The notes: generated by a model from the letters alone, not told the origin. A stretch of 32,000 nucleotides of DNA from an uncultured Syntrophomonadaceae bacterium (GCA_964436815.1 CAYTER010000017.1:6804-38803); one strand, 5' to 3'; counted from the first letter of the stretch, positions 16,194-18,403 are shown. Numbers and translations are program-made.

Positions 16194-16931
16194 ATGAATA
16201 GCAAGCAAAAAGTGGAACACTTTTCAGTTGTATACCAGGAGCGGGTGATTCCGGTCACCCTGACCAGGAAAAAAGTTAAAAACATAAACTTCAGGATTAT
16301 GCGCGATCACAATGTTGCAGTGTCAGCAGCCGATCATGTCCCCCTGCAGGCGATCGAAAAGTTGATCTTCAGAAAAGCTGGTTGGATCCTGAAACACTTT
16401 GACAGCTATGCCCGAAAACAGGAAAACACGGCTATCTGCAATTATGAAAACGGTGATCAGTTGTACTATCTTGGCCAAACTTATACTCTGCGGCATCAAC
16501 CGGCGATTAAAAAGGAAGAAGTACTGATTGACAACCAGAATATATACTTGCTCGCCCGTTCTGATCGTAACCGCGAACAGCGGGAAAAACTAATTGAAAA
16601 GTGGTACAGGGAAAAAGCCAGGTTAATATTTAATCAGTCACTTAATGAGCTATATCCTCTGCTTGAAGGGCACCGCATCCCCAAGCCGGCGCTGGCGATT
16701 AGAAAAATGAAAACCAGGTGGGGTTCCTGCACACGCAGTAAAAATAAAATTACTCTCAGCCTGGAACTTGTCAAAGCGCCGTCAGCTTGTATTGGCTATG
16801 TGGTACTTCACGAGCTGGTCCATTTTATTCACCCGCATCATGGTAAAGCCTTTTACGATTGTCTCTCCGATCTGATGCCCGACTGGAAAGAACGGCGCAG
16901 GTATCTGAAAGAAAATACTGCGCCCGGTTAA
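16194..16931 (+). CDS. YgjP-like (DUF45, M48-related) metal-dependent hydrolase
   Basis: 245 aa. MKTRWGSC followed by VVLHELVHFIHPHHGKAFY (HExxH plus H), the characteristic DUF45 signature. Confidence 0.8.
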   Translation: MNSKQKVEHFSVVYQERVIPVTLTRKKVKNINFRIMRDHNVAVSAADHVPLQAIEKLIFRKAGWILKHFDSYARKQENTAICNYENGDQLYYLGQTYTLRHQPAIKKEEVLIDNQNIYLLARSDRNREQREKLIEKWYREKARLIFNQSLNELYPLLEGHRIPKPALAIRKMKTRWGSCTRSKNKITLSLELVKAPSACIGYVVLHELVHFIHPHHGKAFYDCLSDLMPDWKERRRYLKENTAPG

Positions 16932-17236
16932 TAATCAGAGATACCTTCCAGGGAGCAGCCGCAAACATCTCCGCAACATTTACCCTTGATACCGAGTTTA
17001 TCCATCAGTAACGCATAAGCACAGCCTACACCCGGTCGGACATAAATCGCACCCGGAGCACAGTTGCGGGCACAGGCGCCGCACTCCATGCAGGCATCGC
17101 GGTCTGTAATCGTGCTAAGCCTGTTTTCCAGTGAAAAAACCTGCTGGGGACAAACTTCAATGCATAGCCCGCAGCCATTACATTTGCTTTGATCCAACTT
17201 TAAGGTGACGACATCCTTTAAGTAACGGTATTTCAT
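16928..17236 (-). CDS. hgcB: HgcB, 2x[4Fe-4S] ferredoxin of the mercury-methylation pair
   Basis: 102 aa. Two CX2CX2CX3C motifs (CNGCGLCIEVCP and CMECGACARNCAP). The conserved GVGCA cysteine is Cys72. The C-terminus has a CC pair (KCCGDVCGC). GGAGG SD lies 9 nt upstream. The gene sits 27 nt downstream of hgcA. Confidence 0.88.
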   Translation of the reverse strand: MKYRYLKDVVTLKLDQSKCNGCGLCIEVCPQQVFSLENRLSTITDRDACMECGACARNCAPGAIYVRPGVGCAYALLMDKLGIKGKCCGDVCGCSLEGISDY

Positions 17237-17263
17237 TTATTTATTCCTCCACCATCGATCAGT

Positions 17264-18403
17264 TTATACAAAAAAAGACAGGACCAGAGTTACAGCCCCG
17301 GCTGAAGCTGATATGATGATCACCGGCAGGGCTACCCCCATTTCCTTAACCACCCCGGAAAGCGAAGTATAGGTCGTGGAACCGGTGAAGTTGAGACTTA
17401 GAAATGACGCAATCGCCGGAATGGCAAGGAGATAAGAGGCTTTCAGAAGCCAGGATGAACCGCTGTACAAAGTGGTCACCAGCAAAGCGGCCAGCACCGC
17501 TCCGCTGATCCAGCCTTTCCAGGCCAGGGCGCGCCCCGGGATATAGGGCAGTAAGGCGGGGGCCAGCACAGTACCGGCCAGGGCTGCGCCGATAAAGGGA
17601 AGCAGGGTGTAACCTGTTCTGCCAAGGGCTGCCGGAAATGCAAATTGCCTGACTGAAATCAATAAAGCAACCGAGCTGAGTAGAAAGAGCAGCAAAGCCA
17701 GGCCGGCCAGTGGCTTGAACACGGCCACCAATTCAACCGGAGTTAATACCAGCCGGTCGATCAGGGAAAAGGTAGTACGACGCATATCGTTTTCTGCTTT
17801 ATGCCCGTTTTCAAGGTAAGCGGGTATGTCACAGGCTTTTACAGGGCCATATTTTACCCTGAACCCACTTTCAGCTTTTACCAGGTGAGCAGCCACGCCC
17901 GGTGCGCTGAGTTGCGGCAGGATCAGTGACCGGTGGCTTACCAGTTTGGAAAGTTTCGTTTCGTTTACCATGCGCACAATTTCAGCTGTGCCGAAAGTCC
18001 CTTTGCCCGCTGCACACCAGACATTGATTCCTTTAGTGTTGATCACCAGGATCCAGAGATCTTGTCTGCTGAGTTCTTTGCGCAGGCTGTCAAAACTTAA
18101 CTTATAGTTGGCGGAAACCAGCACCGGGGACTCCGGGGTGGGGTTGCCGACACAGTAAAGCCCCGGAGCAATAGCATAGTTCATCCGTCCCACTCCCCAG
18201 CGGGCTTTGACGGAACCAAATTGATCTGCTGCCGTTAACGCGGTTTTAACACGTTGCACCTGACCAATCACAGTCTCCTTTGTGCCGTCCAGGATGCTTT
18301 CATTATAAGGATAGACAGTTTTTTCTGCTTCCTCCTGTGAAGTTATGCAACAGGAGACAGCTTCACTTTCATAGATCGGCAAATCGCTGTTTTTACTGAT
18401 CAT
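17264..18403 (-). CDS. hgcA: HgcA, corrinoid protein of the mercury-methylation pair
   Basis: The diagnostic cap-helix motif INVWCAAGKGTFG is encoded at about 18002..18025, with the Cys codon at 18014..18016. The C-terminal domain has about 5 predicted TM helices, including NFTGSTTYTSLSGVVKE. I place the start at ATG 18403 (MISKNSD...), with a GGAGG about 12 nt upstream and an 11-nt overlap with the regulator stop. The ORF-track start at 18538 would overlap the regulator by 146 nt. Confidence 0.9.
   Translation of the reverse strand: MISKNSDLPIYESEAVSCCITSQEEAEKTVYPYNESILDGTKETVIGQVQRVKTALTAADQFGSVKARWGVGRMNYAIAPGLYCVGNPTPESPVLVSANYKLSFDSLRKELSRQDLWILVINTKGINVWCAAGKGTFGTAEIVRMVNETKLSKLVSHRSLILPQLSAPGVAAHLVKAESGFRVKYGPVKACDIPAYLENGHKAENDMRRTTFSLIDRLVLTPVELVAVFKPLAGLALLLFLLSSVALLISVRQFAFPAALGRTGYTLLPFIGAALAGTVLAPALLPYIPGRALAWKGWISGAVLAALLVTTLYSGSSWLLKASYLLAIPAIASFLSLNFTGSTTYTSLSGVVKEMGVALPVIIISASAGAVTLVLSFFV

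Follow-up and report, generated by a model that had tools for sequence, protein, structure and literature searches.

The window analysed here, a 32,000-nucleotide stretch of DNA from an uncultured Syntrophomonadaceae bacterium (GCA_964436815.1, CAYTER010000017.1:6804-38803), contains a hgcA–hgcB gene pair directly downstream of a gene for a MarR-family regulator. Both genes are intact members of their families and carry the signature residues, and the gene order, the regulator and its upstream site are conserved among related loci. Very probably, the pair encodes a system for the methylation of Hg(II) with cobalamin and S-adenosylmethionine (SAM) and forms the distal part of a MarR-regulated unit. 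Other than hgcAB, no genes are known to determine the microbial formation of methylmercury; every carrier that is confirmed thus enlarges the set of organisms to be considered in mercury risk models, and the present pair extends the list of carriers to an uncultured Bacillota lineage found in several metagenomes. The pair is a member of a thoroughly known family, both genes of which a standard annotation pipeline would name, and it teaches nothing new about the enzyme. The MarR regulatory unit is the more interesting lead, not yet a result.

Identity and signature residues of HgcA and HgcB

Our direct reading of the sequence agrees with the original prediction on the position of hgcA, which starts at ATG 18403 and ends with TAA (17264..17266), and on a ferredoxin gene that lies behind a GGAGG sequence after a spacer of 27 nt (17237..17263) and starts at ATG 17236. 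The features of the pair are as follows.

17264..18403, minus strand: hgcA, coding sequence of the HgcA corrinoid protein, 379 aa (NF040863, 435 bits; homologues 378–379 aa)
18413..18417, minus strand: GGAGG ribosome-binding site of hgcA, 9 nt before the ATG, within the 3' end of marR, read from the sequence
18347..18352, minus strand: Cys18-Cys19 pair in the N-terminal extension of HgcA, which is modelled with low confidence and lies outside the curated profile
17804..18292, minus strand: corrinoid-binding alpha/beta domain of HgcA, approximately residues 38–200 (PF03599, 2h9a, AlphaFold2, Foldseek)
18002..18025, minus strand: cap-helix motif NVWCAAGK, residues 127–134; Cys130 (codon 18014..18016) is the predicted Co-thiolate ligand
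17270..17743, minus strand: transmembrane domain of HgcA with five long helices, residues 221–251, 256–283, 293–312, 318–337 and 348–378 (AlphaFold2)
16928..17236, minus strand: hgcB, coding sequence of the dicluster ferredoxin partner of HgcA, 102 aa (NF040864, 110 bits; Fer4_7/Fer4)
17246..17250, minus strand: GGAGG ribosome-binding site of hgcB, 9 nt before the ATG, within the hgcA–hgcB spacer, read from the sequence
17060..17182, minus strand: two CX2CX2CX3C [4Fe-4S] motifs of HgcB, Cys19/22/25/29 and Cys49/52/55/59
17021..17023, minus strand: Cys72 of HgcB (GVGCA), equivalent of the essential Cys73 of ND132 (PMC7305189)
16955..16978, minus strand: C-terminal Cys cluster CCGDVCGC of HgcB (Cys87, 88, 92 and 94), followed by the tail SLEGISDY

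We scored both products against NCBIfam equivalog profiles with curated cut-offs (275 bits for HgcA, NF040863; 99 for HgcB, NF040864; 285 for fused HgcAB-like proteins, NF043039; 306 for the gamma subunit of CFeSP, the corrinoid iron-sulfur protein). HgcA reaches 435 bits (E = 1.7e-130) over positions 1–323 of the 325 in its profile, and HgcB reaches 110 bits (E = 3.6e-32). Since these scores exceed the HgcA and HgcB cut-offs and both proteins stay below those of the paralogues, we assign the pair to HgcA and HgcB. A search with HgcA returned 7988 relatives at E <= 1e-20, and a hgcB homologue lies directly 3' of hgcA in 80 of 80 related loci. Pfam sees only the broad CdhD family in HgcA and generic Fer4 in the partner (Fer4_7 and Fer4 both match), which explains the label "acetyl-CoA synthase subunit gamma" in older records. 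A longer hgcA reading frame of 424 aa from TTG 18538, present in the mechanical list of open reading frames (ORFs) only, was discarded because it would share 146 nt with the MarR gene, the closest homologues (378–379 aa) align over 100% of the 379-aa query from ATG 18403, and the gene was independently called at 379 aa in other assemblies of the locus.

The predicted cap-helix motif is found (INVWCAAGKGTFG), with its cysteine codon in the predicted place. Cys130 lies in an octapeptide identical to that of Pseudodesulfovibrio mercurii ND132 and is the equivalent of Cys93. Among 25 aligned homologues, N127 to G133 are invariant and K134 is nearly so; the same octapeptide occurs in 118 of 120 close HgcA homologues. 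The high-stringency definition of Hg-MATE combines a cap helix of the form N(V/I)WC(A/S)(A/G/S)GK, given as six octapeptides, with C(M/I)ECGA on the hgcA contig (PMC10087281). Here, NVWCAAGK is accompanied on the same contig by CMECGA, which forms residues 49–54 of HgcB and belongs to its second cluster motif.

A soluble corrinoid-type domain followed by about five transmembrane helices had been predicted, and our structural analysis bears this out. The AlphaFold2 model of HgcA, built on 25 homologues taken from database proteins only, has a mean predicted local distance difference test score (pLDDT) of 76.5 and shows alternating strands and helices over residues 38–198, followed by the five long helices; a hydropathy scan flags four of the five. 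Residues 79–195 match PF03599 (CdhD, E 2.1e-12), and residues 76–198 align by sequence with the CFeSP gamma subunit 2h9a (E 4e-9). With Foldseek and a PDB-derived library, the top match is the HgcAB model 9a0b_A (E 6e-21, 44% identity over 327 columns), and CFeSP structures come next (E 3e-7 to 9e-5). A sequence search of PDB chains found no solved HgcAB structure, and the only HgcAB entry in the Foldseek library is 9a0b, a computational model from 2020. The segment NFTGSTTYTSLSGVVKE (residues 338–354), which had been named as one of the transmembrane helices, is present, but it is a near-invariant polar segment between helices 4 and 5; N338, T340, G341, T344, T346, S347, S349–V351 and E354 are invariant in this region of the homologues.

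The first 29 residues of HgcA are modelled with a pLDDT below 50, and the match to NF040863 begins at residue 49. This extension of about 48 residues, which is modelled as disordered, carries a CC pair in 105 of 119 close HgcA homologues; the pair is missing from the shorter Desulfitobacterium-type HgcA. It could provide an extra thiol site for the handling of Hg(II) or methylmercury.

HgcB displays the predicted pattern of two CX2CX2CX3C motifs and a GVGCA cysteine. All eight cluster cysteines are found in 76 of 76 aligned HgcB sequences from related loci, and the column of Cys72, which lies 13 residues past Cys59, holds a cysteine in 75 of the 76. In the same alignment, cysteine occupies 99% of the Cys88 column, 83% of the Cys92 column and 79% of the Cys94 column. 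A C-terminal CC pair had also been predicted. Cys87 and Cys88 form such a pair, but not at the extreme C-terminus, since they open the CCGDVCGC cluster, which is followed by an eight-residue tail. The complete C-terminus, CCGDVCGCSLEGISDY (16928..16978), thus combines a cysteine cluster with an acidic tail, while most relatives end in CC or CCG; the same variant occurs in a Bacillota metagenome-assembled genome (MAG; L002).

HgcAB biochemistry is known for the ND132 proteins only (PMC11588087). In that organism, Cys93 of HgcA is essential and the proposed cobalt ligand, and the membrane domain is required; HgcB cannot do without Cys73 and requires Cys94, Cys95 or both (PMC7305189). The purified complex first makes methylcob(III)alamin, in a Co-thiolate-ligated state, with the methyl group of SAM, and Hg(II) is methylated in the next step (PMC11588087). 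Each of the implicated residues is matched in the present pair: Cys130 in HgcA, and Cys72 and Cys87/88/92/94 in HgcB. By analogy with the purified enzyme, the soluble CFeSP-like domain of membrane-anchored HgcA would hold cobalamin under the cap helix, with Cys130 predicted to ligate cobalt. HgcB, as a ferredoxin with two [4Fe-4S] clusters, would reduce the corrinoid cofactor; Hg(II) and methylmercury would be handled by its Cys72 and by the cluster of cysteines at its C-terminus. Co(I) would accept the methyl group of SAM, and the resulting methylcob(III)alamin would donate it to Hg(II).

The MarR-family regulator and its upstream site

Upstream of the pair we identify a regulator gene, a promoter and a palindrome.

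18393..18866, minus strand: gene of a MarR-family regulator (marR), 157 aa, from ATG 18866 (GTG 18869 possible); its 3' 11 nt overlap hgcA
18903..18932, minus strand: sigma-70-like promoter of marR–hgcA–hgcB, TTGACT and TACAAT with an 18-nt spacer; 10 of 12 consensus positions match
18900..18920, no strand assigned: perfect 9+3+9 palindrome of 21 bp, ATAATTGTA-TAT-TACAATTAT, over the -10 box; candidate MarR operator

The three genes appear to form one unit in which hgcA and hgcB are distal. Co-transcription is suggested by the overlap of marR and hgcA, the short hgcA–hgcB spacer and the fact that no significant hairpin separates the genes; hgcA and hgcB each have a GGAGG of their own. A terminator-like hairpin with a T-run does occur in the last hgcA codons (17279..17300, minus strand), and we considered it as an attenuator of hgcB. 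Its folding energy (-9.4 kcal/mol) is no better than that of shuffled sequences (z = -0.47), and it is therefore probably a by-product of the SFFV codons. The terminator scan found sites no more numerous than in shuffled sequence. At the other end of hgcB, a convergent gene for a YgjP-like metallopeptidase (16194..16931, plus strand) overlaps it by 4 nt at the stop codons (TTAA, 16928..16931), which leaves no intergenic room for a terminator; a convergent YgjP gene also lies 3' of hgcB in two related loci (L083 and L162). At Rfam gathering thresholds, no riboswitch (e.g., cobalamin) or other known RNA was detected near the pair; the only hit is a tRNA at 22996.

The regulator matches the Pfam families MarR_2 (PF12802, E 2.3e-11, 44 bits with a cut-off of 27) and MarR (PF01047, E 7.5e-11, 42 bits with a cut-off of 24.6). 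No NCBIfam equivalog reaches its cut-off, and the solved relatives are distant only (best E 2e-7). The protein contains cysteines at positions 30, 31, 38, 148 and 149. Of 120 homologues, 99% have Cys30, 97% Cys31 and 79% Cys38, and the two C-terminal cysteine columns are conserved in 64% and 78%.

Most related loci have a TTGACA-type -35 box at the same position as the box described here. An exact TTGTA-N3-TACAA site occurs once in the window, namely in the palindrome that covers the -10 box; a search for a second operator copy, which would have hinted at a wider regulon, yielded a single one-mismatch site at 24731, which lies inside a coding region and is within chance expectation. Upstream of members of the MarR subfamily, TACAAY/RTTGTA half-sites occur at 1.70 per 125 nt compared to a background of 0.058, and 36 of the 84 distinct upstream regions contain the core TGTA-N3-TACA, against an expectation of about 0.001. 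ATTGTA/TACAAT half-sites precede marR in loci from Bacillota, Deltaproteobacteria, Spirochaetota and Aminicenantes, frequently with two or three of them past a TTGACA box. The palindrome is thus likely to be the binding site of the cysteine-bearing MarR protein, and its position over the -10 box suggests repression. In its simplest interpretation, the locus would be an autoregulated marR–hgcA–hgcB operon with a single sigma-70-type promoter, the -10 box of which is part of the 21-bp palindrome; it would be repressed at a site over that box and respond to a cysteine-based signal input.

In eight deltaproteobacterial loci (L005, L019, L022, L041, L045, L050, L065 and L072), the palindrome runs into the marR start codon, e.g., as GGTTGTATGACACAACCATG past the TTGACA box, and the mechanical ORF calls start at an ATG inside the palindrome. 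This arrangement suggests that the marR transcript is leaderless or nearly so in these loci.

The original prediction had called the regulatory context of this hgcAB copy unusual. Our comparison shows that it is not rare: across the window and 76 related genome loci, the ORF directly upstream of hgcA encodes a MarR_2 protein in 26 of 77 cases (25 of 76 without the window, about a third) and an ArsR/HTH_5 protein in 25, with a few MazE-like antitoxins or unrelated genes in addition. Viewed from the regulator, the linkage is tighter. When we searched metagenomes with a narrow MarR alignment as query, hgcA lay directly downstream on the same strand in 65 of the 77 loci whose downstream part was long enough. 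In six clear exceptions, more than 1.2 kb follow the regulator gene and contain no hgcA. Instead, arsM, encoding arsenite methyltransferase (NF008823, 309–321 bits with a cut-off of 263), is present in four of them, a gene for an ArsP_1-family permease in the fifth and one for a DUF5916 protein in the sixth. All except the DUF5916 locus retain an upstream site of the same type. The genes downstream of the MarR subfamily in these five loci are as follows.

L147:2955-3785: arsM, above the NCBIfam cut-off
L149:608-1426: arsM, above the NCBIfam cut-off
L151:2967-3770: arsM, above the NCBIfam cut-off
L159:645-1460: arsM, above the NCBIfam cut-off
L110:2935-3957: ArsP_1-family permease

One regulator type is hence linked to two different metal(loid)-methylation systems, hgcAB and arsM. 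Tentatively, and with somewhat less than even confidence, we propose that these proteins represent an undescribed, phylum-spanning MarR subfamily, defined by a near-invariant N-terminal CC, a C-terminal C(C) and a conserved ATTGTA/TACAAT operator that covers the subfamily's own -10 box. It would be dedicated to genes of metal(loid) methylation, mostly hgcAB and sometimes arsM.

Our literature search found no paper on the sequence features or the operator of the hgcA-adjacent MarR gene. One paper describes two strains with a MarR-family gene immediately upstream of hgcA, both of which are listed as experimentally confirmed methylators; it mentions MarR in passing, without the cysteines, the operator or the arsM link, and the likeness to our regulator is by description only. 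In 112 genomes, McDaniel et al. (PMC7438021) noted that hgcAB is preceded by a "putative transcriptional regulator", to which they gave no name and which may or may not be of the same family.

Among the regulators of hgcAB, only the Desulfovibrionaceae ArsR-type has been studied so far. If the MarR protein is a thiol-based sensor of metal(loid)s or electrophiles, it would be a second, independent regulator type, after ArsR2, that ties hgcAB to arsenic or metalloid chemistry, and the protein, its operator and candidate ligands would provide a handle on the purpose of HgcAB and on methylmercury control. With a conserved-cysteine MarR protein and a defined operator that accompany hgcAB in the taxa listed above and occasionally arsM, the questions of hgcAB control and of the native substrate become directly testable.

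Alternative explanations and genomic setting

It is highly improbable that the corrinoid protein is a non-methylating relative, either a CFeSP subunit of the AcsC/AcsD type or a fused HgcAB-like protein, with a generic ferredoxin as its neighbour. Such an assignment would agree with the broad CdhD family being the sole Pfam match of HgcA and with the CFeSP being the only solved structure matched by sequence. However, HgcA scores just 75 bits with the CFeSP gamma profile, aligning with profile positions 323–446 only, and 207 bits with the fused-protein profile (55 bits for HgcB), far from its 435 bits as HgcA. The CFeSP alignment is confined to HgcA residues 76–198 and places CFeSP GTSVLTAWAAGKF opposite HgcA GINVWCAAGKGTF, with threonine in the CFeSP where HgcA has its cap-helix cysteine. 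HgcA also lacks the N-terminal Fe-S domain and the TIM barrel of the CFeSP and has a five-helix membrane domain. The ferredoxin is encoded by a separate gene and contains the HgcB-specific Cys72 and C-terminal cysteine cluster. Placement with either group of paralogues, named in the original prediction as the outcome that would speak against it, thus did not occur.

A few observations do weigh against an intact, promoter-driven HgcAB unit. HgcB exceeds its cut-off by a narrow margin of 11 bits, and its second cluster motif ends in CAP rather than the usual CP. The cap-helix region is of low confidence in the AlphaFold2 model (pLDDT below 50 at residues 130–135), which is expected since the model was built without the cofactor. 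The promoter scan found two sites where shuffled sequence would yield 3.4; because the scan performs no better than on shuffled sequence, we base the promoter call on the conservation across loci instead.

Two further explanations accept the pair as true HgcAB and differ in what it does in the host. It is quite possible, if somewhat short of probable, that Hg methylation is a side reaction and that the pair was selected for another corrinoid-dependent reaction, such as the reductive dehalogenation of halomethanes or a role in the handling of arsenic or other metalloids, with a regulator tuned to that substrate. A 2026 preprint reports the dehalogenation of CCl4 and trihalomethanes by model methylators and by heterologously expressed HgcAB, and in ND132 the ArsR-like regulatory protein that is encoded upstream of hgcAB responds to arsenic and S-adenosylhomocysteine (SAH). 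The replacement of hgcAB by arsM in four loci of the MarR subfamily and by an ArsP_1-family permease in another points in the same direction, as does the lack of mer or ars genes beside hgcAB in the window. Then again, the dehalogenation claim comes from a single preprint, the window contains no pointer to halomethane metabolism, and the scoring of the host would be the same, since organisms with unfused hgcAB have all methylated Hg when tested, while tested organisms with the fused form do not (PMC10087281). This explanation concerns the purpose of the pair, not its identity. We consider it unlikely that the pair is intact and effectively silent, producing little methylmercury because of MarR repression or a missing cobalamin supply. 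A candidate operator over the -10 box has the geometry of a repressor site, and expression of HgcAB is reportedly very low even in model methylators (PMC11588087). On the other hand, hgcA and hgcB are under evident purifying selection, being of full length with invariant signature residues, and the same locus has been recovered from several independent metagenome assemblies.

A true hgcA–hgcB pair for Hg(II) methylation, distal in a MarR-regulated unit, therefore remains our preferred explanation. The original prediction had scored the host as a putative methylmercury producer, and given that Hg methylation has been seen in every organism with unfused hgcAB that was tested, we regard this as a reasonable inference: the host, uncultured and known from metagenome assemblies, is a putative methylator.

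Among the representatives of GTDB (one genome per species), the nearest HgcA (66% identity) belongs to an uncultured "Syntrophomonadaceae" MAG (L001), which shares the local order of penicillin amidase (79% identity), zinc-ribbon protein, MarR and hgcA. This synteny argues for vertical inheritance in the lineage. Several metagenome assemblies contain identical or 99%-identical copies, on contigs that are up to 336 kb long. Elsewhere, the window is made up of ordinary chromosomal genes (photolyase, DinB, GH127-type hydrolase, amidohydrolase, glycosyltransferase, PFK, penicillin amidase, tRNA-Gly, flavodoxin, peroxiredoxin, FMN reductases, Hsp20, 6PGD and G6PD). We also considered a mobile element or a resistance island, and found neither mer or ars genes nor signs of mobile elements in the window. 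The pair thus gives the impression of a chromosomal locus that an uncultured Bacillota lineage has inherited vertically.

A gene for an FmdB-type CxxC zinc-ribbon protein of 56 aa (18989..19159, minus strand) closely precedes the MarR promoter; it is kept in place in the closest relatives (L001 and L082–L085; 77–91% identity) and not in more distant hgcA loci. Further away, a tRNA-Gly(TCC) gene (22996..23069) is followed by a cluster of the redox-defence type (23254..25881) with genes for a flavodoxin-like protein, a peroxiredoxin (AhpC/TSA) and two FMN reductases; nothing ties this cluster to hgcAB. Relatives of the MarR protein are found in Candidatus Contubernalis (P0162, 55% identity) and on two contigs (L086 and L087) whose names (SL_3KL_010_SED...) we take to denote soda-lake sediments. 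The host lineage may be related to haloalkaliphilic Bacillota of the Dethiobacter/Contubernalis type.

Comparison with known systems

The closest known counterpart is the HgcA/HgcB pair of P. mercurii ND132 (DND132_1056/1057), which has the same gene order and the identical NVWCAAGK motif, with Cys93 in the place of Cys130. ND132 HgcA likewise consists of a CFeSP-like corrinoid domain and five transmembrane helices, and its model 9a0b is 44% identical over the 327 structure-aligned columns. As in the present HgcB, the ND132 partner has two 4Fe-4S motifs, a further cysteine (Cys73, equivalent to Cys72) and C-terminal cysteines. In contrast to ND132 HgcA, our protein carries about 48 extra N-terminal residues with a CC pair, outside the curated profile. 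ND132 HgcB ends in CC, whereas ours ends in CCGDVCGC and an eight-residue tail, and the regulator is a MarR-family protein instead of the ArsR-like ArsR2.

The large (gamma) CFeSP subunit of the Wood–Ljungdahl pathway (e.g., 2h9a, 2ycl and 4djd) shares a homologous corrinoid alpha/beta domain and cap helix with HgcA (Foldseek E 3e-7, rmsd of 2.3–5 Å over approximately 130–155 columns). It differs in having threonine at the position of the cap-helix cysteine and in its architecture, with a 4Fe-4S domain at the N-terminus, a TIM barrel and no membrane domain. The fused HgcAB-like proteins (Pyrococcus furiosus Q8U2U9; NF043039) have the cap-helix region, the membrane domain and the ferredoxin motifs in common with the pair described here; they combine them in one polypeptide, whereas here the corrinoid protein and the ferredoxin are encoded by separate genes.

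On the regulatory side, the system to compare is ArsR2 (DND132_1054), which is co-transcribed with hgcAB in Desulfovibrionaceae and matches our MarR gene in its position and orientation with respect to hgcA. Both regulators are small winged-helix proteins with a distinctive set of cysteines. They belong to different families (PF01022, HTH_5, for ArsR2; PF01047/PF12802, MarR, for the regulator described here), and their cysteines are arranged differently: the metal site of ArsR2 contains four cysteines, while the MarR protein has CC(+C) towards its N-terminus and C(C) towards its C-terminus. A link to arsenic is documented for ArsR2, and the arsM linkage of the MarR subfamily appears to parallel its arsenic response.

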